Below are positions 6,325 to 61,566 of a DNA stretch of 64,000 nt, piece by piece; within the stretch, counting starts at the first letter, position 1, and each line of letters begins with the position of its first letter. The notes under the pieces were generated by a model. It saw only the letters and a list, made by a program, of their open reading frames with translations. It was not told the origin of the DNA and made no database searches. The DNA is from Alphaproteobacteria bacterium (lineage in GTDB: Bacteria > Pseudomonadota > Alphaproteobacteria > Rickettsiales > 21-14-0-20-44-7). The position numbers and the translations under genes were made by a program. The DNA lies in contig JAYVPI010000001.1 of assembly GCA_043757405.1 (NCBI GenBank), forward strand, positions 211,437-275,436, written 5' to 3'.

Positions 6325-7316
6325 ATAAACTTACCATATCCCTTGACGCAATCTCTGCCAATTATCGGGATTTAAAAAATAAATTCACCGGCAATGAATG
6401 CGGCGCAGTAGTGAAAGCCAATGGCTATGGTTTGGGCGCATCTCCAATTGCGGCGCGGTTGGCGAAGGAAGGTTGCCAAAAGTTTTTTGTGGCGGCTATT
6501 GAAGAAGGAATTGAACTGCGTAAAACTATTAAAGAACAGATTTTTGTTTTTCATGGGGCGCAGAAAAATGAAGTTTTGGATTTTCAGGCTCATAACCTGA
6601 TCCCCATATTGAATAGCCCGGAACAACTGGCAGCCTGGCCGAAAGATAAGCCATGCGTTTTGCATTATGATAGCGGCATGACTCGCCTGGGTCTCACGGA
6701 GCCGGTTTTGGATCATAATCCGGTGATGATAATGAGCCACCTCGCCTGTGCGGATCATCCTGATGATCATAAAAACGCTGAGCAATTGGAGAATTTCAAA
6801 AAATTGGCCGCCGCGCATCCTAAAACTCCAAAAAGCCTGTGCAATACATATGGAATTTCGCTTTCATCCGAATATCATTTCGACATCGCCCGCCCTGGAA
6901 TCGGGCTTTATGGCGGGTTTGGCATGAAAAATGTGGTCATGCTCACCGCTCCAATTATCCAAATTCATGAAGTCAAAAAAACCAGCACTGTCGGCTATGG
7001 CGCGGAATATGAGGCAGTTCCTGGAGATATCATTGCCACTATTCCGGTTGGCTATGCTGATGGAATCATGCGCTCGCTCAACCATAAGGGCAAAACATAT
7101 TGCGGCGAATATGAGCTGCCGGTGGTGGGGCGGATTTCAATGGATTTAATTACCATAAAAATAAACAATCTGCCCCCGGAATTGCGCCGGATCGGACAGA
7201 TGGTTGAAATCTTGGGCGAAAAATATAATATCTGCGATATGGCGCGTGATGCGGGAACGATTGAATATGAAATCATCACGCGGCTCGGTAACAGGTTTGA
7301 AAGGATTTATAAATAA
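6321..7316 (+). CDS. alr: Alanine racemase
   Basis: The PLP-lysine motif VVKANGYGLG and the C-terminal EYEIITRLG context are present. At 331 aa it is somewhat short. Confidence 0.85.
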   Translation: MNKLTISLDAISANYRDLKNKFTGNECGAVVKANGYGLGASPIAARLAKEGCQKFFVAAIEEGIELRKTIKEQIFVFHGAQKNEVLDFQAHNLIPILNSPEQLAAWPKDKPCVLHYDSGMTRLGLTEPVLDHNPVMIMSHLACADHPDDHKNAEQLENFKKLAAAHPKTPKSLCNTYGISLSSEYHFDIARPGIGLYGGFGMKNVVMLTAPIIQIHEVKKTSTVGYGAEYEAVPGDIIATIPVGYADGIMRSLNHKGKTYCGEYELPVVGRISMDLITIKINNLPPELRRIGQMVEILGEKYNICDMARDAGTIEYEIITRLGNRFERIYK

Positions 7317-20924: not shown

Positions 20925-21145
20925 GTCATTGCGAGCTCTTGCGCGGTGTTGTATGGTAAGACTCCATAACATAAATAAGGACTGTCATCCTCGAACCGAA
21001 GGTTCGGGGATCCAGGGTTAAAGCCACCGGCGGAGTGTTTGATCCTGGATCCCCGCCCAAGTGGGCGAGGATGACGGTGTCTGTTTTTGGTAATCAAATA
21101 TCAATAACTTACCGAGCCATGCAACAATGCCGCTCTTGCAATGAC
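20925..21145. repeat. Composite nested palindromic element: outer GTCATTGCGAG...CTTGCAATGAC, with inner GTCATCC...GGATGAC at 20984-21075
   Basis: The outer arms are imperfect inverted repeats and the inner element has two hairpin modules. The reverse complement closely matches 23849-24119. Confidence 0.8.
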
Positions 21146-22348: not shown

Positions 22349-22395
22349 ACACTGGAAGCGGGTTTAGCAGGGGGCAGAAAAAGAATCAACTGATT

Positions 22396-22455
22396 TCGTT
22401 TATCGTTGATCGTTGATCGTAAATTGTATAACGGTAAACGATCAACGATAAACGA
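22396..22455. repeat. TCGTTGATCG-type palindromic element (copy 1)
   Basis: TCGTTTATCGTTGATCGTT and AACGATCAACGATAAACGA are perfect 19-bp arms around AAATTGTATA. The element is related to 46953-47024. Confidence 0.7.
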
Positions 22456-22459
22456 GCTC

Positions 22460-23071
22460 ATGCAAATCATAAGATCAAACGAGCTGGTAGATTATCCTTC
22501 GGCGCTTTCCTTCATGGAAAACCGGGTGGACGCGATTATTGAGGGCACGGCGGAAAACACGCTTTGGCTGCTGGAACATCCGCCACTATACACTTCAGGT
22601 ACCTCAGCCAAAATCTCGGATTTATTGCAGCCGGAATTTCCAGTTTACAAGGCCGGGCGTGGCGGGGAATATACTTATCACGGGCCAGGGCAGCGCGTGG
22701 TTTATGTTATGCGGCGGCTGGAGAAACATGACTTGCGGGCCTATGTGCGGGATTTGGAACAGTGGATAATCAATACGCTGGCGCATTTTGGGATCATGGG
22801 TGAGCGGCGTGAGGGGCGGATTGGAATTTGGGTGGCGGCGAATGGCAGCGAAGCAAAAATCGCAGCACTGGGAATCCGCGTGCGGAAATGGGTGGCTTAT
22901 CATGGGATCGCGATCAACGTGAAACCGGATTTGCGCCATTTTGGCGGAATTGTTCCCTGTGGGATTTCAGAATTTGGGGTGACATCGTTTGAGAAACTGG
23001 GAGTGAAAGTTTCGCTGAATGAAGTGGATGAAGTTTTGATTGAGGAATTCATAAAATTATTTAAAAACTAA
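22460..23071 (+). CDS. lipB: Octanoyltransferase LipB
   Basis: Contains [11 protein letters not shown] and [17 protein letters not shown]. The start is set at MQIIRSNE; the upstream part of the track ORF runs through the palindrome. Confidence 0.9.
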
Positions 23072-23072
23072 C

Positions 23073-23119
23073 GTCATCCTGAGCATAGCGAAGGATCTTT
23101 CGCTTGCGCTCAAGATGAC
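23073..23119. repeat. 48-bp-type palindromic element (GTCATYCTGAGCGCAAGCGAAGGATC... family), intergenic copy
   Basis: GTCATCCTGAGCATAGCGAAGGATCTTTCGCTTGCGCTCAAGATGAC begins 2 nt after the lipB stop. Confidence 0.8.
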
Positions 23120-23133
23120 GTATAGATGGAATT

Positions 23134-23848: not shown

Positions 23849-24119
23849 GTCATTGTGGGCTTAGCCAGCGTTGTTGCATGGCTCGGAAAGTTATTGATAT
23901 TTGGTCACCAAAAACAGACGCCGTCATCCTCGCCCGCTTGGGCGGGGATCCAGGGTCGAACACTCCGTAGGTGTCTGTAGCCCTGGATCCCCGAACCTTC
24001 GGTTCGAGGATGACAGTCTTTATTCGTGCTATGGAATCTTAACCATGCAACAACGCCGCTTAAAGCCGTAATCAATCTCCATGCTTGAGTTGAGATTGCG
24101 GCTCGTAGGCCGCAATGAC
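23849..24119. repeat. Composite nested palindromic element, inverted copy of 20925-21145 (inner element 23923-24014)
   Basis: Aligns base for base, with few differences, to the reverse complement of 20925-21145. It carries an extra hairpin, ATTGCGGCTCGTAGGCCGCAAT. Confidence 0.8.
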
Positions 24120-24131
24120 AGAGTTAGATAA

Positions 24132-34683: not shown

Positions 34684-34699
34684 TATCCCTATGCTACAT

Positions 34700-34763
34700 G
34701 TCATCCTGCGACTTGATCGCAGGATCTCTTAGAGAAGACCCTATGGTCAAGCCATAGGATGAC
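34700..34763. repeat. GTCATCC...GGATGAC palindromic element, intergenic
   Basis: GTCATCCTGCGACTTGATCGCAGGATC...CCTATGGTCAAGCCATAGGATGAC. The left module is identical to the one in dnaE (42660). Confidence 0.85.
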
Positions 34764-39203: not shown

Positions 39204-39229
39204 GTCATCCCCGCTTGCGTGAGGATGAC
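39204..39229. repeat. Minimal GTCATCC-hairpin-GGATGAC element between era and recO
   Basis: The sequence is GTCATCCCCGCTTGCGTGAGGATGAC. Its last base is the first base of the era stop-codon complement. Confidence 0.55.
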
Positions 39230-40110
39230 TAAGAAATATTTTTTTTGTCATCTGCTTTTTTCACCTTCACATGTAAAAACAAATGCACCTTATTCCCCAA
39301 CATTTTGCCAAGCTCCAGCCGCGAATTCTGGCCGATTTTTTTGATCATGCTGGCATTGTCGCCGATAATGATTTTTTTGTGACCAAGGCTGCCTGCATAA
39401 ATCGTTTGGTGGATGGTGATGCCTTTTGGACCATTGTCCTTATAAATATCAGTTTCCACATCAATCGCATATGGCAGTTCTTCGCGCAGGAGGTAGAAGA
39501 GTTTTTCCCGCGTAACTTCCGCGGCAGTAAAACGGTCATCTTTGTCGGAAAGTTGGTCTTCAGGATATGCCCAGGGCTGGTCGCCGGAGTTTTTTACTAA
39601 ATATTCCACCAATTCATCGATGCCTTTATTTTTGCTGACCGAGGTCATGAAAATTTCACCAAAAATTCCTGAGTCGAACAATTCCTGCGCCAGTTCCAAC
39701 TTGGCCTCCTGCTCGGCAATGTCGATTTTGTTGATTACCGCAACGGCCTTTACCGCGCCCTGCGCCTTGCTAATCTTGCCTCTAATACCATCAATAATCT
39801 TCTGTGATAATTCCGTCATCCCGCGTTTGGCGTCTAGCAGAAATACAATCTGCTCAACATCTCCAATCCCCTGCCAGGCATGATCCACCATCTTCTTCTG
39901 GCGGTCGTCGTGTGGATTCATGATTCCGGGAGTATCCACAAAAACCAATTGGGTTTCGCCCCTTACAACAATCCCGCGAATATTTTCGCGCGTGGTTTGT
40001 GGCCGCGGGGAAACGATACTAACTTTGGAACCGACAATATGATTCACCAACGAAGACTTGCCCGCATTTGGTGCGCCGCATATGCCGATAAATGATGATT
40101 TTTGGCTCAT
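39229..40110 (-). CDS. era: GTPase Era
   Basis: GAPNAGKSSLVN, DTPG and a KH domain are present. The start is set at MSQKSSFIG (40110); the 25 upstream codons of the track ORF are read-through of a repeat element. Confidence 0.9.
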   Translation of the reverse strand: MSQKSSFIGICGAPNAGKSSLVNHIVGSKVSIVSPRPQTTRENIRGIVVRGETQLVFVDTPGIMNPHDDRQKKMVDHAWQGIGDVEQIVFLLDAKRGMTELSQKIIDGIRGKISKAQGAVKAVAVINKIDIAEQEAKLELAQELFDSGIFGEIFMTSVSKNKGIDELVEYLVKNSGDQPWAYPEDQLSDKDDRFTAAEVTREKLFYLLREELPYAIDVETDIYKDNGPKGITIHQTIYAGSLGHKKIIIGDNASMIKKIGQNSRLELGKMLGNKVHLFLHVKVKKADDKKNIS

Positions 40111-40125
40111 GGCCACATGATATAC

Positions 40126-40173
40126 GTCATCTTGAGCGCAAGCGAAAGATCTTTCGCTCGCGCTCAAGATGAC
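40126..40173. repeat. 48-bp palindromic element at the era/dnaE junction
   Basis: GTCATCTTGAGCGCAAGCGAAAGA|TCTTTCGCTCGCGCTCAAGATGAC has one arm mismatch. It contains the dnaE stop codon (40164-40166). Confidence 0.85.
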
Positions 40174-43100
40174 GATGGAAGGCAAATGCCCTCGATGAAC
40201 ATTATCTGCTCTTTTAAATTATCATTCACCGCATAATATCCCGGCAGTTCCAGCACCACTTCGCTAACGCCCGTTTGCGCTTTTAATATTACGCGGTTTT
40301 TGAACAACATGCCGCTTTCATATATATTCGCAGCTAATAAATTTCTCAGTTTCGCCACCGCTTCCAGGTTATCTGCAACAAAATTCAAGTCCTGGACTTT
40401 TATAAAACGCAGGAAATTTGCCTTAATTGCCGCTTGCAATTCTTCTATCCTCTCTGCCAACAAACGCACACCACCTTCATCTTTCTTCGCCTCGGCCGTA
40501 ATCAATATCGGCGTATTACTCGCCAACATTTCCGCCGCGCGGGTGATTAGGTCATCTTCGTAGAGAACAATTTCAAACACCCCCATCCCATCCGAAACTT
40601 TCGCAAACGCAAACCGCCCACGCTTGCCGGAACGAATATTCAAGGTTGCCAGCACACCAGCTAAACGAACTTTGGTCGAAGCGCTCTTCAGGCGTTCTTC
40701 GATTTGTATTGATGGCAACACGCCCATTTCATCGAGGATATGCTGATAATCATTCAATGGATGGTCTGATAAATAAAACCCAAATGCCTCATATTCCGCC
40801 TTCAGACGCTCATTGGAATCCCAATCGCTGGCCTGTACTAACGAGGGTTTTGGCGCTTCGCCAATCGTTCCTTCGCCAAATAAGCTGATTTGCGAAGAGT
40901 CAATTTCTTCCTGGCAAATATTGTTATACCGGCTGAGCATCTCCGCCGATTCCAGGATCTGCCGGCGGTTGCAAGCCATGCCGTCAAACGCCCCTGCCTT
41001 CGCCAAACCTTCCAAATGCTTCTTATTAATCACCTTAACATCGCAGCGTTTGCAAAAATCAAACACATCGGCGAACTTCCCGTTCTCCTTCCTCTGCGCC
41101 GCCATTGCTTTCGCCGCTTCGATACCAACGCCTTTTAATGCACCTAGCGCATAACGGATTGAGCCGTTTTCAGGTTGGAAATAAGCCTCTGAGGAGTTGA
41201 TATCAGGAGACAAAACTTTGATACCGCGTTTGCTGGCTTCGTGTTTATAAAAGCTGAGTTTGTCGGTGTCGGCAATATCGAGGTTCATACAGGCGGTCAA
41301 AAACTCCACCGGGTAATGGCAGCTCAAATATGCTGTCTGGTAGGCAATCACCGAATAAGCCACCGCGTGGGATTTGTTGAAACCGTAACCGGCGAATTTG
41401 GCGATCAAATCAAAAATATCCGCCGCCAGTTTTTTATTGATCCCCTTCTCCGCCGCACCTTCGGCAAACATCAGGCGTTGTTCATCCATCTCCGCCTTAA
41501 TCTTCTTGCCCATCGCCCGCCGCAGCAAATCCGCTTTGCCAAGCGAATATCCGGCCAATATTTGCGCGGATTGCATAACCTGTTCTTGATAAACCAAAAT
41601 TCCATATGTCTCATTCAACAAATCCGACAATGAAATATGCGGATATTGCACCTCTTCCTTGCCGTGTTTCCGCGCATTATAACTCGGAATATTTTCCATC
41701 GGGCCGGGGCGGCAAAGCGAAGTTAGTGCCACGATATCCTCAAATTTATCAGGGCGCATTTTGCGAATTGCGTCTTTCACCAAAGTTGTATCCAACTGGA
41801 ATACACCCGCCGTTTCACCTTTGGAAAGCATATGGAAAATCTTCTCATCATCCAGCGGTAGGTTGTGGATATCAACTTTATTCCCCCCAGCCTCAACAAA
41901 CTGCCGCGCCTTATCCACCAGCGTCAATGTACGCAAACCGAGGAAATCGAACTTCACCAACCCGGCCGTTTCCGCATCTTTCATCGAATATTGCGAAACC
42001 GGCATTTCTGAGCGCGGGTCTTTATATAACGGCACCAACTCCACCAATGGCCGGTCAGCAATCAATATTCCCGCCGCATGTGTAGAAGCATGGCGATTCA
42101 ATCCTTCGAGTTTCAGCGCCACATTCAACAATCGTCCGATATTCTCATCATCACGTTGCAACCGCCGCAGTTCAGGATCCATATCTATCGCTTTGGAAAG
42201 CGTCACCGGGTCAATTGGATTGAACGGAATCATTTTAGAAATCCTATCAACTTCCATGTAGGGAATTTGCATCACCCGCCCGACATCGCGCAGCACCGCC
42301 CGCGCTTGTAGTTTTCCGAAAGTGATAATCTGGCAGACACGGTCGTGGCCATATTTATTACGCACATAATCGATCACCTCATCGCGCCGCTCCTGGCAGA
42401 AATCGATATCAAAATCCGGCATTGATACACGTTCAGGATTCAAGAACCGTTCAAACAGCAAGCCAAACCGCAACGGGTCAACATCGGTGATTTGTAGCGC
42501 CCAGGCTACTAAGGAACCTGCACCCGAACCCCGTCCCGGCCCCACCGGAATTCCCTGGCCCTTCGCCCATTTGATGAAGTCGGATACGATTAAGAAATAG
42601 CCCGGAAATTTCATCTTGATAATGACATCAAGCTCGAATTCCAGCCTAGTCCAATATTCGTCATCCTGCGACTTGATCGCAGGATCTTGTGAGTGCATCT
42701 CAGGAGGTCCTGCGGTCAAGCCGCAGGATGACGTTTTAGTATTTAAGCGCTCCTGCAAACCCTCACGCGCCTGCACCCGTAACTCATCTTCCTGCGTCCT
42801 GCCAGCCTCAGTTGGATAATCCGGCAACATCGGCTGACGTCCTTCTGCTTTAACCGAGCAACGTTTCGCAAGCTGCACCGTATTGGCAATCGCCTCCGGA
42901 ATATCCGCAAAAATCGCTATCATTTCCTCAGCTGATTTAAAATAGAATTGGTCGTTATATTTCTTGCGGTTTTCATCAACCAAATATTTGCCCTCGGCGA
43001 TACATATCAGCGCGTCATGGGCCTCGGACATATCCTGGGTTGAATAGAAGCAATTATTAGTGGCGATCAGTGGGAGATTATATTTATAGGCTATATCTAT

Positions 43101-43625
43101 CAGGCCAGGTTCAACTTTTTCCTCTTCCTCCAATCCATGCCGCGTCAATTCAACATAGAGGCGGTTCGGGAACATACCATTCAGGCGCTCGGCGAATTGT
43201 TGGGCTTTTTGGGTTTCACCCTTGGAGATGAGTTTAGCCATTTCCCCTTCCACTCCGGCGGTTAGGCATAGCAAACCTTCGGTATATTGTTCCAACTCCA
43301 CCAGATCAAGGCTCGCTTCGTGCGGGGAGCTGGAGCGGAGTATAGATTGGCTGACTAATTTGAGGAGATTTTGGAAGCCTGTTTGATTTTGCGCATATAA
43401 AACTAATTTTGAACCCTCAACTTTGACTTCGCAGCCGATAATGGGCTGCACACCTTTATAGGCCGCCGCTTTGGAAAATTCCAGGATGCCAAAAAGATTG
43501 CCGCTATCAGTAATCGCCACAGCCGGCATATCATAATGCACCGCCATCTCCACCAGTTCCCCAATCCTAATCGCGCCCTCGGAAAGCGAAAACTGGGTGT
43601 GGTTGCGGAGATGGATGAATTGCAT
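40164..43625 (-). CDS. dnaE: DNA polymerase III subunit alpha
   Basis: The PHP N-terminus (MQFIHLRNHTQFSLSEGA) and FPGYFLIV are present. Length is 1153 aa. Confidence 0.97.
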   Translation of the reverse strand: MQFIHLRNHTQFSLSEGAIRIGELVEMAVHYDMPAVAITDSGNLFGILEFSKAAAYKGVQPIIGCEVKVEGSKLVLYAQNQTGFQNLLKLVSQSILRSSSPHEASLDLVELEQYTEGLLCLTAGVEGEMAKLISKGETQKAQQFAERLNGMFPNRLYVELTRHGLEEEEKVEPGLIDIAYKYNLPLIATNNCFYSTQDMSEAHDALICIAEGKYLVDENRKKYNDQFYFKSAEEMIAIFADIPEAIANTVQLAKRCSVKAEGRQPMLPDYPTEAGRTQEDELRVQAREGLQERLNTKTSSCGLTAGPPEMHSQDPAIKSQDDEYWTRLEFELDVIIKMKFPGYFLIVSDFIKWAKGQGIPVGPGRGSGAGSLVAWALQITDVDPLRFGLLFERFLNPERVSMPDFDIDFCQERRDEVIDYVRNKYGHDRVCQIITFGKLQARAVLRDVGRVMQIPYMEVDRISKMIPFNPIDPVTLSKAIDMDPELRRLQRDDENIGRLLNVALKLEGLNRHASTHAAGILIADRPLVELVPLYKDPRSEMPVSQYSMKDAETAGLVKFDFLGLRTLTLVDKARQFVEAGGNKVDIHNLPLDDEKIFHMLSKGETAGVFQLDTTLVKDAIRKMRPDKFEDIVALTSLCRPGPMENIPSYNARKHGKEEVQYPHISLSDLLNETYGILVYQEQVMQSAQILAGYSLGKADLLRRAMGKKIKAEMDEQRLMFAEGAAEKGINKKLAADIFDLIAKFAGYGFNKSHAVAYSVIAYQTAYLSCHYPVEFLTACMNLDIADTDKLSFYKHEASKRGIKVLSPDINSSEAYFQPENGSIRYALGALKGVGIEAAKAMAAQRKENGKFADVFDFCKRCDVKVINKKHLEGLAKAGAFDGMACNRRQILESAEMLSRYNNICQEEIDSSQISLFGEGTIGEAPKPSLVQASDWDSNERLKAEYEAFGFYLSDHPLNDYQHILDEMGVLPSIQIEERLKSASTKVRLAGVLATLNIRSGKRGRFAFAKVSDGMGVFEIVLYEDDLITRAAEMLASNTPILITAEAKKDEGGVRLLAERIEELQAAIKANFLRFIKVQDLNFVADNLEAVAKLRNLLAANIYESGMLFKNRVILKAQTGVSEVVLELPGYYAVNDNLKEQIMFIEGICLPSSS
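42660..42732. repeat. GTCATCC...GGATGAC element inserted in frame in dnaE
   Basis: GTCATCCTGCGACTTGATCGCAGGATC...CCTGCGGTCAAGCCGCAGGATGAC encodes SSCGLTAGPPEMHSQDPAIKSQDD. Confidence 0.85.
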
Positions 43626-43706
43626 GGTTCATTTATAAACCATGCAGTTGCCAAATATCAAATGCCAAATGTTAGTTCTGTTATTTGATATCTGACATTT
43701 GGCATC

Positions 43707-44378: not shown

Positions 44379-44396
44379 AACTCCATCCTTCAACAG

Positions 44397-44476
44397 CCGT
44401 CACCCCGCACTTGTTGCGGGGTCTATTCACAAGTTCATGCCCTGTAATGGATGCCGCAACAAGTGCGGGGTGACGG
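44397..44476. repeat. GTCACCCCG...CGGGGTGAC palindromic element between lolC/E and lolD
   Basis: Perfect 23-bp inverted arms CCGTCACCCCGCACTTGTTGCGG / CCGCAACAAGTGCGGGGTGACGG flank 34 bp. Confidence 0.9.
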
Positions 44477-44485
44477 TTTTGGTGG

Positions 44486-45736
44486 CTATTCATAACGCAA
44501 CGCCTCCGCCGGATCTAGTTTGGCGGCGCGCCAGCTTGGATAGATCGTGGCGATCAGGGAAATTAATAGCGAAATTCCCGCTACTTCGAGAACTTCTTTT
44601 GGGTTCACCAGCGCTGGAAGATGATCGAGGTGATAGATCTCCGGGTTAAAAACTTGTGTTTTGGTGACATATTCAACTGCTTTTTGTATGGGGCCGATGT
44701 AGTGGCAGAATAATAAGCCAAGTAAAACTCCGCTAAGCGTTCCGACGACGCCATTAAAACTGCCAACTAGCATAAATGCGCGTTGCACGGCGCGGCGCTC
44801 CATTCCCATTGTGCGGAGGATGGCGATTGATTGGGACTTGTCTTTTACAAGCATAATCATGCCGCTGATGATGTTGAATGAGGCCACCAAAATTATCATG
44901 CTGAGGATTATGAACATCATATTGCGCTCGGTTTGCACGGCGCCAAAGAATTGGGAGTTGGCTTGCTGCCAGTCATAGACGCGGTACCTGTCGCCGTAGC
45001 GATCGTGCAGTTTATAAGCATATGGCAGCGCATCGTCTAAATTTTTGACTTCAATGCCAAGGCTTTCAACCTTACCGCCAAAATCAAAGAGCCCTTGCGC
45101 AGTTTCAAGCGGGATATAAACCATATTGCGATCATATTCCTGCATACCAAGATTAAAGATGCCGACGATTTTGAAAGTTTTCTTGCGCGGGATGGCGCCA
45201 AAGACGGTTGAGGTGGATTGAGGAGTGAGGATGGTAATTTCGTTGCCGATATATGCATCCAACGCACTGGCCAGTTTGAATCCGATGATGATGCCATCTT
45301 CGCCAAAATCTTTCCATTCGCCAACAAAATCCATATTATTGACGAGCTTATTCGCCTGTAATTTTTCCGACGGAACCCCGCGTACTTTGACGCCTTCAAC
45401 CGCACCTTTGGCATGCGGGTTGAAAATCACCGCATTGCCCTCGATAGTTGGCGTCACGGATTTAACTTCCGGATCTTTCTCAATTTCCTTTTGAAGCAAC
45501 TGCCAATCCGGCAATCCGCGCTCCAGTGAATAAACCGAAACATGCGAATTTACGCCAAGGATGCGGCCCAGCAAGTCATTACGAAAGCCGTTCATAACTG
45601 AGAGGACGATGATAAGCGTCGCCACGCCGAGGCTTATGCCGACAATCGAAAGTCCCGCCACAATCGATATCATTCCCTCCCGCTTTTTTGTGCGTAGATA
45701 GCGGGCGGCGAGTGTTAGTTCCAGTTTATTGAACAT
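44486..45736 (-). CDS. Lipoprotein-releasing system transmembrane protein, LolC/LolE family
   Basis: N-terminus [21 protein letters not shown], with MacB-like periplasmic and FtsX domains. Length is 416 aa. Confidence 0.85.
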
Positions 45737-46949
45737 TTATTACCTTATTTAAAGCCGCCTCAACCGAAACTTCCTGCTTCTCACTAGATTTGCGATTCTT
45801 CAACTCAACCATTCCATTGGCCGCGCTTCTTGGCCCCACAGCAATTTGCCACGGTAGCCCGATCAAATCCATCGTTGCAAATTTCGCACCCGCTGAACCA
45901 TCGCGGTCATCGTATAAGCAGCTTGCGACTTTGCCATAGATTTCACTGCAGATTTTATCGCAGGCAGCATCACCAGGTTTGATGTTGATTAGCCCGAGTT
46001 TATATGGCGCGACCGGTTCCGGCCAGATGATGCCATTTTCGTCGTGGCTGGCTTCGATAATCGCCCCCACCAGTCGCGAAACGCCGATGCCGTAACTGCC
46101 CATTTGCGGGATAATTTCCTTACCGTCCGGCCCTTGGACTTTGACTTTCATGGCACGCGAATATTTATCGCCGAAATAGAATATGTGGCCAACTTCAATC
46201 CCCCGCGCTTCCTTGAAACCTTGTGGCGCGGTTTTGGGATCGTGCATTTCATCGGCCATGGCATATGAAAAATCATCGGTGTAATAAAGCGCCGACTCTC
46301 CGGTCTGCGCGACGATATGGAATTCGTGGCTCAAATCTCCGCCGATTGGCCCTGTATTGGCGCGAACAGGCACGGCTTTCAATCCCATGCGGGAGAAGGC
46401 TTTTAAATATGCGCCGTGATATTTCCAATATGTTTCCTGCGCCGCTTTTTCGTCGATATCAAAGCTATAAGCATCCTTCATCAAAAATTCGCGGCCGCGC
46501 ATGACGCCGAACCGTGGGCGGACTTCGTCGCGGAATTTCCATTGGATGTTATAAAGCATTTTTGGCAGGTCTTTATATGACTTGCAGGATTGGCGGAAAA
46601 TATCGGTGACAACTTCCTCCGCTGTCGGGCCAAAGAGCAGATCGCGGTCAGAGCGGTCTTTTATACGCAGCATTTCCTTGCCATAAGCTTCATATCGCCC
46701 AGATTCCTGCCATAATTCAGCCGGTTGCATAGTCGGCATCAATAGTTCCAGCGAGCCGATCGCGTCCATTTCCTCCCGAACGATTTGTTCGATATTTTTG
46801 AGGACTTTCAAGCCCAAAGGCAGCCAATTATAGATCCCCGCCCCCACTTGGCGCACCATTCCGGCACGCAGCATCAGGCGATGTGAGGCAATTTGCGCCT
46901 CAGCCGGATTTTCTTTGATTATCGGAAGGAGATATTGGCTTAGTTTCAT
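45726..46949 (-). CDS. proS: Proline--tRNA ligase (short form without editing domain)
   Basis: N-terminus [34 protein letters not shown]. Class II motifs are present. Confidence 0.9.
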
Positions 46950-46952
46950 AAG

Positions 46953-47024
46953 TCGTTCGTTGTTAATCGTTGATCGTTCATCGCTTGTAATTCGATAAAC
47001 GATTAACGATGAACGATCAACGAA
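46953..47024. repeat. TCGTTGATCG-type palindromic element (copy 2)
   Basis: TCGTTGATCGTTCATCG...CGATGAACGATCAACGA with a TTGTAA centre, between the proS and rpmG starts. Confidence 0.65.
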
Positions 47025-47089
47025 AAAGCTTGACTTTGCTGTGGGCGATGGCTAAAAACCCTGACAAATCAAAGAATCGGATAAGAAAA

Positions 47090-49654: not shown

Positions 49655-50377
49655 CTATTTTTTATCGCAAACCGCCTCAAAAAATATCGCCCGCGTGGTA
49701 TTGGCGAGGTTTTTCTTCTGATACTTAGTTTCAATATGGTCAATAGGTTGTGTTTGCCAATCTGCCCTGGAACCTGCCAACCAACGAAATTTATCGTGTT
49801 CCAGCAATTCTCTGGCGATCCATTTAGCATAATCTTCGTGATCCGTGGCAATTCTGAGCCTGGCATCCCGCTTCATAATTCGTGCAAGCAAGTCTAAAGT
49901 TTGCTTCGATATTATCCGGCGTTTATTCTGCCGTTTCTTTGGCCACGGATCGGGGAACAGTATAAATACACGATCAATAACTCCCTCCCACACGTCATCC
50001 TGCGGCTCGACCGCAGGATCTCCTATGGTCAAGCCATATGGTGACGTAATTAATTGACGAAAATCTCCGGCATAGACTCGGATATTCTTAAGCTCATTCT
50101 CTTCAATCCCACGCAATAATTTTACAGTTCCGTTTACAAACGGCTCGCAGCCAATAAAGCCAATTTTGGGATTTGCCAGCGCCTGATGCAATAAATGACC
50201 ACCATCACCAAAGCCGATCTCCAGCCAGATTTCTTTGAAATCAAACTTAGGAAAGCCGTCAACTTTCACTTTGGGCAAAACTTCCGCCAACAGCTTTTTG
50301 GAATTATCACGCAGCTTGCGCGACTTGGTACGACCAAAGCTTTGCAGGTATTTAGGCGACTGCTTTGCGTAATTCAT
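49655..50377 (-). CDS. trmB: tRNA (guanine46-N7)-methyltransferase TrmB
   Basis: Contains [14 protein letters not shown]. The start is set at ATG 50377 and overlaps the metK 3' end by 26 nt. The track's 50443 start is less likely. Confidence 0.85.
49994..50045. repeat. GTCATCC...GGTGAC element inserted in frame in trmB
   Basis: GTCATCCTGCGGCTCGACCGCAGGATCTCCTATGGTCAAGCCATATGGTGAC encodes [17 protein letters not shown]. Confidence 0.8.
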
Positions 50378-51548: not shown

Positions 51549-51575
51549 TTGGATACCTTGAATATCTGTTATATC

Positions 51576-51659
51576 GTCACCCCGGACTCGTTCCGGGGTC
51601 TGGCATTAGACACAATCTCTTGCCTCAACTTCCGGATCGCGGAACCAGTCCGCGATGAC
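51576..51659. repeat. GTCACCCCGG...CGCGATGAC two-hairpin element in the metK leader
   Basis: The hairpins are CCCCGGACTCGTTCCGGGG and ATCGCGGAACCAGTCCGCGAT. The architecture is that of the superfamily. Confidence 0.7.
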
Positions 51660-51693
51660 GATTATTAATGATGAAGTGGGTTTAACAGAGCTC

Positions 51694-53760: not shown

Positions 53761-53763
53761 AAC

Positions 53764-53834
53764 GTCATCCTGCGGCTTGACCGCAGGAACTCCTCATACA
53801 CGCACCAGACCCTGCAATCAAGTAGCAGGGTGAC
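53764..53834. repeat. GTCATCC...GGGTGAC element at the lnt start / bioF end
   Basis: GTCATCCTGCGGCTTGACCGCAGG...CCCTGCAATCAAGTAGCAGGGTGAC. It contains the bioF stop (53818-53820) and lies 3 nt upstream of the lnt ATG. Confidence 0.8.
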
Positions 53835-54951
53835 ACATATTTAGTGTTTTAAGCCAATCCGCCAATAAATCAATTTCACTTTTCGTATGCGCCGCCGTCA
53901 CCGAAATGCGGAGCCGCGCCGTCCCCTTAGGCACCGTTGGCGGCCGCATCGCCGAGACTAGTATTTTATTATCCTTAAGCAACTTCTCCGCCGCTAGCGC
54001 CTTTTCCTCGCTGCCCAAAATAATAGGAACGATACTTGAAGTTCCGTCATTACGAGCGAAGCGCGGCAATGACGATTTAAGATATTCCGTATTCTTCAAT
54101 ACTTTCAAATATAGCTCATCCCGCCCAGCAATCTCCAGCGCCTTTATCGCCGCACCAACCGCGAATGGCGGCAGCCCAGTTGAATAAATCAATGATCGCG
54201 CCTTAGTCTCCAAATACCGAATCAAAGCCCGAGAACCACAAACATACCCCCCATAACTCCCCAGCGCCTTTGACATTGTCCCGATATAAATGTGAGCTTT
54301 AAGTTTTGATTTTTGATAAATGGAGTGTGCGCCGTCAACTATTAGTGTGCAGTTGTTTTTATCGGCGATTTCCTTCAGCTCATCAACCGGAGCAAAATCC
54401 CCATCCATTGAAAAGATCTCTTCGGTGATGATGAGCCGCCTGCGCTTATCGTCATTCTGAGCGCAAGCGAAGGATCCTTCGCTTGCGCTCAGAATGACGT
54501 CTTTCTCCAAACACTTCTTCAAGTCAGCAACATCATTATGCTTAAACCGCACCAGCTTTGCGCCGGAGAGCTTTATTGCGTCGATTATAGAAGCGTGGAC
54601 TAATTTATCGGCATAAACCACTTCCGGCTCCAGCGCTGTGATAACGCCAAGATTTGCCAGATATCCGCTGCCAAATACCGTGGCGGCCTCATAACCTTTA
54701 TAAGCCGCGATTTTTTCAGCAAATTCCCCAAATAATGGATGATTTCCGCCCGCAATCCTGCTTGCCCCCGCTCCTGCGCCATATTTTTCCGCAGCTTCTA
54801 TTCCGGCAATAATCACTTCCGGATGGCGGCTTAAACCTAAATAATCATTTGATGTAAAATTGATAAATCCTTCCCCCCACTCACCCTTGGGCGTTCGCAG
54901 GAGATTTTTATCCTTCAAATCATTTAGTTTTTGCTGTAATAGACTATCCAT
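53818..54951 (-). CDS. bioF: 8-amino-7-oxononanoate synthase
   Basis: SNDYLGL and the PLP-Lys context [12 protein letters not shown] are present. The start is set at ATG 54951 (MDSLLQQKL...); the track's 55011 start is TTG. Confidence 0.85.
54451..54498. repeat. Perfect 48-bp palindrome inserted in frame in bioF
   Basis: GTCATTCTGAGCGCAAGCGAAGGA|TCCTTCGCTTGCGCTCAGAATGAC has 24+24 arms with no mismatch. It encodes [16 protein letters not shown]. Confidence 0.9.
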
Positions 54952-55934: not shown

Positions 55935-59082
<3,148 letters not shown>

Positions 59083-61442: not shown

Positions 61443-61536
61443 GTCACCCCGTCCCCAGCCTTCGCTGGGGCAAGCCTTTGTGACGGGGTCAAGCGGTTCT
61501 TGTAAACGCCAGACCCCGCAACAAGTGCGGGGTGAC
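61443..61536. repeat. Mosaic GTCACCCC...GGGGTGAC element
   Basis: The right arm CCGCAACAAGTGCGGGGTGACGG (61516-61538) is identical to 44454-44476. The internal CCCAGCCTTCGCTGGG is identical to the module in lnt (53402-53417). Confidence 0.8.
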
Positions 61537-61566
61537 GGATAATATTTGTTATTTTAAATGTATCCA

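Follow-up and report, generated by a model that had tools for sequence, protein, structure and literature searches.

The junction between dnaE and era in this alphaproteobacterial DNA is occupied by a near-perfect palindrome, and it raises the question of what kind of element this is and how far it has reshaped the ends of the two genes. The analysis covered the window (the whole stretch of 64,000 nucleotides), related junctions and loci from other genomes. The first-pass annotation had described a 48-bp palindrome at 40126-40173, which is indeed present and amounts to 50 bp (40125..40174) once the flanking C and G are counted. Its two 25-nt arms are 96% complementary, with one mismatch and no spacer, and chance alone would give about 4e-9 such palindromes in 64 kb. 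On the minus strand, the letters across the junction run GAG GGC ATT TGC CTT CCA TCG TCA TCT TGA GCGCGAGCGAAAGATCTTTCGCTTGCGCTCAAGATGACG TATATCATGTGGCC ATG AGC CAA AAA.

Each 24-26-nt arm is a hairpin behind a fixed tag (CGTC, then ATCTT GA GC, GCAA, GC GA AAGAT), and the palindrome can be described as a spacerless head-to-head dimer of two such tagged units that overlap by 2 nt at the central GATC. Unit 1 (40149..40174, minus strand, which is the mRNA strand) reads CGTC / ATCTTGAGC / GCGA / GCGAAAGAT; behind its CGTC tag lies a stem that begins A-T/T-A, contains two G·A mismatches and closes on a 4-nt loop. Unit 2 lies in inverted orientation (40125..40150, plus strand) and reads CGTC / ATCTTGAGC / GCAA / GCGAAAGAT. 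On either strand, the 50-bp copies have one open frame (VILSASE.SFACAQ.D), one frame that closes at SS* or SF*, and a third that closes at its last codon. Because only one of the three frames is open, an internal copy can survive only in that frame, as exemplified in bioF (see below), and a copy that lands among a gene's final codons will usually terminate it with a stop of its own.

This last situation is found in dnaE (40164..43625, minus strand), which encodes the 1153-aa alpha subunit of DNA polymerase III; an identical 1153-aa protein is public as P0001. The dnaE stop codon TGA (40166-40164, minus strand) occupies positions 9-11 of the 5' arm of the repeat, just as had been proposed from the letters of the window, and the dnaE frame of the element is closed, reading SS* here and SF* as the alternative among the 50-bp copies. 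The protein ends ...ICLPSSS*; the stop, the second and third of the Ser codons and two bases of the first are repeat sequence. When DnaE C-termini are aligned, the tails differ in every relative and none ends LPSSS: the six closest orthologues carry KAC, AINQ, KIA, SAITA and others after a conserved KEQIMFIEG(I/V), and more distant orthologues end ..GVWAV or ..GVWVA. The C-terminal tail of DnaE is thus short and variable. Reading Ser-Ser-stop, the dimer ends the protein after a short non-conserved tail, and the insertion was presumably tolerated because this tail is variable. The further proposal that the element replaced the native 3' end of dnaE is plausible, and it stands only to that extent, since the exact ancestral junction cannot be reconstructed from the available relatives.

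On the other side of the junction, era (39229..40110, minus strand) encodes the 293-aa GTPase Era. The longest open reading frame for this gene is 318 aa (39229-40185) and begins with TTG 40185, not with an ATG. The additional 25 codons (40111..40185, minus strand), 16 of which derive from the repeat, form an open extension that is most likely untranslated. The element and era are joined through the frame that had been pointed out earlier, opening at TTG 40185, and the same-frame peptide ILSASE.SFACAQ.D is encoded by the copy in bioF. In three relatives whose DnaE is 81-89% identical (L001-L003), Era is 291-293 aa long and begins MSQKSSF, MTQKSSF or MNQKASF, in alignment with ATG 40110, and the 25 extra residues have no counterpart in any of them. 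The GTPase domain begins at residue 33 of the 318-aa frame, and in the public collection the gene is called as the 293-aa Era; the 318-aa form is absent there. On the strength of these alignments and the gene call, the true start of Era is ATG 40110, which lies 14 nt downstream of the foot of the hairpin. The first-pass annotation was right that the N-terminal extension is false, in that no orthologue has the 25 codons, but the extension arises solely in a longest-ORF reading, because the public gene call is the 293-aa form.

The first-pass annotation did not place the element in a described repeat superfamily. We assign it, with a probability of roughly 0.85, to the CGTC-tagged REPs, as one copy of a short, non-coding, multi-copy palindromic repeat made of two head-to-head CGTC-tagged units; the superfamily includes the Rickettsia elements RPE-4 and RPE-6. 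CGTC-tagged REPs were divided into families CGTC-1 to CGTC-4 by Di Nocera, De Gregorio & Rocco (2013, BMC Genomics 14:522; PMC3733652), who describe a CGTC tag, stems of 8-9 bp starting with A-T and T-A, and loops of 4-5 nt. According to the same paper, these REPs occur mainly as head-to-head dimers in predominantly alphaproteobacterial hosts and lack an associated transposase, and CGTC-1 equals Rickettsia RPE-6 and CGTC-4 equals RPE-4. Also described there are stop codons that come from REP ends, annotated N-termini whose REPs probably reflect misannotation, and a REP within R. conorii dnaE. All of the behaviours noticed at the present junction, namely the repeat-borne stop and the false N-terminus, are therefore already known for the class.

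The features of the junction copy agree with this assignment in most respects. Both units begin with CGTC outside their own stem (40174-40171 on the minus strand and 40125-40128 on the plus strand), and each of the 20 units located in the window has CGTC, TGTC or GGTC, where the tag of the superfamily is CGTC (or TGTC/CCTC). The stem ATCTT...AAGAT starts with A-T and then T-A, as do those of the sister copies, and the loops, GCAA and GCGA, have 4 nt. Units are arranged head to head, with the tags outward, at the junction and at 9 or more other loci in the window, and the repeat is multi-copy within 64 kb, with at least 20 units at 13 loci versus 1.8 in shuffled sequence. Two traits depart from the published description. 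The stem is not fully paired over 8-9 bp, having instead 9 positions with 7 Watson-Crick pairs and two adjacent G·A mismatches (ATCTT-GA-GC / GC-GA-AAGAT), whereas other dimers in the window (at 42659, 44398, 49993 and 57037) have perfect stems of 8-9 bp. Secondly, the unpaired tail with a CCA consensus is absent: the junction units directly adjoin, with 2 nt of the central GATC common to both, and the subfamily lacks a CCA-like tail because its units overlap. A similar loss of the spacer and adjacent bases is described for CGTC-4 dimers of Wolbachia (PMC3733652).

The likeness to CGTC REPs thus consists in the outer CGTC tag, the A-T/T-A start of the stem and head-to-head dimers that can fold as one long hairpin, and extends to sites near gene 3' ends, in-frame intragenic copies that include replication genes, and the lack of a linked transposase. 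Other dimers in the window match the published 8-bp and 9-bp stem types with 5-nt loops, whereas the junction subfamily differs in its two mid-stem G·A mismatches and in having no tail or spacer. [quoted passage not shown] The host lineage is different (DnaE is about 50% identical to the named Rickettsiales matches), as is the stem sequence, and the link to RPEs is drawn through the equation of CGTC-4 and CGTC-1 with these elements in the 2013 paper (PMC3733652). In-frame insertion of the RPE kind is seen for sister copies in DnaE, BioF, BioA and TrmB; the copy at 40125 is terminal, not internal. The GTAG REPs (REPINs) and their RAYT proteins in E. coli and Pseudomonas offer a further parallel, with a 4-nt tag, an imperfect hairpin, inverted doublets and hundreds of copies per genome beside stop codons, and GTAG ends are known to supply TAG stops. 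They differ from the present repeats in that the tag here is CGTC and no RAYT gene is flanked by CGTC units; no RAYT-like open reading frame occurs in the 64-kb window. A search of Rfam gave no family at the gathering or E-value threshold for the junction element, with generic hairpin matches far below the gathering threshold, and a literature match by the sequence strings of the element and its encoded peptides returned only chance matches to primers. A hammerhead ribozyme, suggested by CUGA...GAA in the arm, was rejected on inspection, the required CUGANGA core being absent.

The window contains many further copies, found by a scan for tag plus hairpin that yielded at least 20 units (1.8 expected in shuffles) at the 13 loci and in several subfamilies. 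Two sister copies belong to the junction subfamily. One (23072..23120) directly follows the lipB stop codon and reaches to 13 nt before the ATG of yaaA; the other (54450..54499) lies in frame within bioF, where it encodes 16 residues. The earlier statement that the bioF copy really encodes the open-frame peptide is borne out, in that the copy is in frame and corresponds to an insertion of about 15 residues relative to solved BioF structures. Four repeats in all are in frame within genes. Besides bioF, these genes are dnaE itself, which holds a dimer of another subfamily with a 9-bp stem and a CTTGA loop (42659..42733); trmB, with a dimer of 18 codons (~49975-50028); and bioA, with a dimer at 56998-57063. 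The dnaE-internal dimer appears as a 24-aa insert in the linker after the PHP domain and is absent from 12 of 12 aligned orthologues, and the bioA dimer is an insert of about 22 aa that is absent from solved BioA structures. At the 3' end of bioF, a CGTC/TGTC dimer (53762..53835) ends 2 nt before the ATG of the next gene (53760) and gives bioF its last five codons (CHPAT) and its TGA, the latter within the CTTGA loop of unit 53809-53835. A dimer of the 8-bp stem subfamily occupies the lolC/lolD junction (44397..44476). The remaining loci are between genes, at 20983-21076 (rlmJ and pyrG), at 23922-24015 and 24095-24120 (between convergent genes), at 34699-34725 (again between convergent genes), at 51575-51660 and at 61513-61537.

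Comparison with relatives argues that the repeats have arrived recently. The element is absent from the dnaE/era junction of all three relatives with 81-89% DnaE identity, and 30 kb of syntenic DNA of relatives at this identity contains no CGTC repeats. The corresponding 10.8-kb block of the source genome holds 4 REP units, and expansion in the source lineage is therefore recent. The junction itself appears to have changed in a second respect. In L001 (6805-7269; DnaE 89% identical), L003 (3717-4184; 81%) and L124 (6360-6773; 71%), dnaE and era are separated by a small Ion_trans_2 (K+-channel-like) gene, which is missing from this position in the source genome and in L002. This gene is probably ancestral and was probably lost in the source lineage; its presence in three relatives and absence here argue that the present junction is derived and that the repeat sits at the scar. 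Removal of the 48 bp would leave ...CLPSYIMWP*, with the TGA overlapping the ATG of era. The sequence TATATCATG agrees with GATATCAGG at the end of the L001 channel gene in 7 of 9 bases, counted by eye (estimated p ~0.03), with the same ATGA overlap. This is suggestive, and no more than that, of the 14 nt between repeat and era ATG (40111-40124) being a remnant of the channel gene 3' end.

The lolC/lolD junction also differs from its state in relatives. There the two genes overlap (cgttATGAATAAgctt), and the source genome has at this place a 107-bp insert that contains the dimer and is flanked by a 10-bp duplication, GTTATGAATA / GTTATGAGTA (flanks 44386-44500). The duplication preserves both the stop and the start codon, the former overlap site is single in two relatives, and the right end of the insert supplies a GGAG ahead of the new lolD ATG. 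The dnaE-internal copy offers no clean empty site, because the insertion lies in a variable loop. Separately, a relative with 72% identity (L123, GCA_964545245.1) has at 6599-6656 a CGTC-1-like head-to-head heterodimer, TGTC ATTCCCGC GCAG GCGGGAAT ..., which lies 13 nt beyond the stop of the preceding gene, with era following about 70 nt later. Being a different CGTC dimer, it argues that REPs upstream of era recur in this clade by separate insertions.

The arm of the junction subfamily is distributed far beyond this clade. When one genome of each species was scanned with the arm pattern GTCATYYTGAGCGCRAGCGAARGA, the 24-nt arm was found nearly unchanged at 118 or more loci (L004-L121), against about 0.07 expected by chance, in at least 12 phyla. 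Among the matches listed are Alpha-, Beta- and Deltaproteobacteria, Clostridia, Verrucomicrobiota, Acidobacteriota, Chloroflexota, Bacteroidota, Gemmatimonadota, Cyanobacteriota, Patescibacteria, Omnitrophota, Nitrospirota, Planctomycetota, Bdellovibrionota and Actinomycetota, and these matches include cultured isolates. An inverted partner lies within 260 nt of 84 of the 129 arms (again among the matches listed), which gives elements of 55-209 bp with variable centres. Covariation was assessed in a set of 73 partner arms on which the search pattern had placed no constraint. Of 72 independent arms, 57 have a perfect outer 4-bp stem (shuffle mean 0.6), and five outer stems covary (TCCT/AGGA, TTCT/AGAA, TCCC/GGGA, TGCT/AGCA and TGTT/AACA); the inner stem of the arms is free to vary, and the flanking GA...GA, i.e. 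the two G·A mismatches, is retained. None of 18 loci from other phyla matched an Rfam family at threshold. A common inner sequence, GCGAAGC, forms a very stable DNA mini-hairpin, and this stability is a hint that the arm is recognised as single-stranded DNA.

The text and intragenic list of the 2013 paper contain only fully paired CGTC stems (e.g. VIPAKAGI, VIAGLDPAI) from five phyla (PMC3733652), whereas the arm found here occurs in many more. The junction subfamily (CGTC-AT-YYT-GA-[short GC hairpin]-GA-ARRAT-C) may for this reason be a subfamily of wider range that has escaped cataloguing. That it is a fifth CGTC-REP family, nearly unchanged across phyla, is a tentative suggestion that we think somewhat doubtful; the distinction from CGTC-1 to CGTC-4 is drawn from the text and intragenic list of that paper. 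If the suggestion is true, it would point to an unknown enzyme of very wide distribution that recognises the single-stranded hairpin form and mobilises the elements, both within a genome and from one genome to another, or alternatively to a universal host factor that constrains the sequence of the arm. The cross-phylum identity of the arm, if it holds, is the part that a specialist might find surprising.

No mobility gene linked to these elements was found at the 118 motif-bearing loci, in agreement with the statement in the 2013 paper that CGTC REPs have no dedicated transposase (PMC3733652). Clustering of the open reading frames of at least 100 aa in the 118 motif-bearing loci revealed no recurrent transposase-like family, the largest cluster covering 11 loci and carrying no annotation, and an IS200 transposase query had no match near the 118 loci. 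Across 0.9 Mb of motif-bearing loci, the RAYT/TIRYT queries of Additional file 5 of the 2013 paper gave a single match, a RAYT-like tyrosine transposase gene in L101 (2656-3123). GTAG-tagged hairpins (GTAGGGCGT...) stand on either side of this gene, and there is a CGTC dimer at a distance of 1.7 kb, so that genome contains both REP superfamilies.

The consequences of the junction copy for expression of the dnaE-era-recO genes are a separate matter. In RNA of the coding strand the repeat forms a 23-bp hairpin, the single mismatch becoming G·U, and the 101-nt stretch around it has a minimum free energy of -55 kcal/mol with z = -8.4 (DNA z-score -10.6). Long perfect stems are typical substrates of double-strand RNases. 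An intrinsic (rho-independent) terminator was considered and rejected: the terminator scan did not call the hairpin, which is followed by GUAUAUCAUG, and there is no T/U run. A terminating dnaE ribosome would have to melt most of the 23-bp hairpin to reach the stop codon, and a hairpin whose foot lies 14 nt before the era AUG would probably alter the relative expression of DnaE and Era, through stalling, mRNA processing or coupling. By analogy, the junction copy may lower DnaE output, or may separate or couple the expression of dnaE and era. In E. coli, ribosomes stall where a REP lies no more than 15 nt from a stop codon (Liang, Rudd & Deutscher 2015, cited in PMC12306157). The likeness is a stable hairpin located either at the stop of the upstream gene or no more than 15 nt from it; the difference is that here the stop lies inside the hairpin arm, not upstream of the hairpin.

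Four other explanations have been weighed against the reading of the palindrome as a tolerated CGTC REP insertion. The junction might be an artefact of assembly or sequencing at a contig join, for which the argument is that an independent assembly of public reads (Logan SRR23617274, L122) breaks within the palindrome. That assembly nonetheless shows the same junction, identical base for base to the deposited one up to the break, which argues that the repeat is not an artefact, and the many copies in varied contexts, some in frame within conserved enzymes, leave this idea with virtually no likelihood. It is also very unlikely that the 318-aa Era is real, i.e. that it is made from TTG 40185 with a repeat-encoded N-terminal tag in the manner of some RPE-1-decorated Rickettsia proteins. 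The frame is open, a GAGG precedes TTG 40185 by 4 nt, and N-terminally RPE-decorated proteins are expressed in R. conorii according to the 2013 paper (PMC3733652). However, the GAGG falls within the conserved dnaE codons for I-E-G, and a ribosome using it would have to load within the translated 3' end of dnaE and then read through the hairpin; in addition, the orthologues all begin at the aligned Met without the extension, and the deposited gene call is 293 aa.

The two remaining explanations concern how the repeats spread and why they stay. They could be MITEs, that is, cut-down insertion sequences moved by a target-duplicating DDE transposase, rather than REP-type single-stranded DNA hairpins. 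The 10-bp duplication GTTATGAATA versus GTTATGAGTA at the lolC/lolD copy, at a site that is single in two relatives, is what such an enzyme would leave, and the conserved arms, like terminal inverted repeats, enclose a variable centre (0-160 bp across phyla). Against this, the copies at dnaE/era, in bioF and within dnaE (40125, 54450 and 42659) have no convincing flanking duplication, and no recurrent transposase was found near the 118 loci. Moreover, each arm has its own conserved hairpin, whose stem covaries even where the two arms no longer match, which is a property of REPs and not of terminal inverted repeats. A MITE origin is thus improbable. Less unlikely, though still the weaker reading, is that selection maintains the hairpin for intercistronic control, serving as an RNase III-type processing site, as a stabiliser at the 3' side of the dnaE segment of the transcript, or as a device that couples or limits translation at the dnaE stop. 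In its favour are the perfect 23-bp RNA stem, which encloses the stop codon and is followed 14 nt later by the era AUG, the absence of a Shine-Dalgarno-like sequence from era, similar close dimers at the co-directional junctions of lipB/yaaA, bioF and its next gene, and lolC/lolD, the different CGTC dimer upstream of era in the 72% relative, and the stalling of ribosomes by REPs near stops in E. coli (PMC12306157). Yet the nearest relatives (81-89% DnaE identity) do without the repeat, and copies also lie within coding regions and between convergent genes, as selfish spread predicts. Simple tolerance of a selfish insertion is therefore more likely than a selected regulatory role.

With the palindrome read as a tolerated CGTC REP, its significance is mainly a point of annotation: DnaE ends ...LPSSS at a repeat-borne TGA, and Era starts at ATG 40110. 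Similarly, the repeat-encoded segments of bioF, bioA, trmB and dnaE should not be taken for domain novelties. The window is also a clear case of CGTC REPs reshaping gene ends and compact junctions outside Rickettsia, and the recent expansion, combined with closest relatives that are repeat-free over the 10.8 kb, makes this lineage a good place to look for pairs of empty and filled sites and for the mobilising activity.

Two additional kinds of repeated sequence were noticed in the window. An AT-rich cluster of inverted repeats (CCAAATATCAAATGCCA...) lies directly upstream of the dnaE start (43618-43705) and is conserved in the 89% relative (L001 3350-3408); it could be an operator or a promoter-region element. 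A palindromic family of TCGTTGATCG-like units has one copy at 22391-22460, beside tRNA-Leu(GAG) and the lipB start, and a second at 46944-47025, upstream of a 407-aa tRNA-synthetase-like gene (45726-46949).
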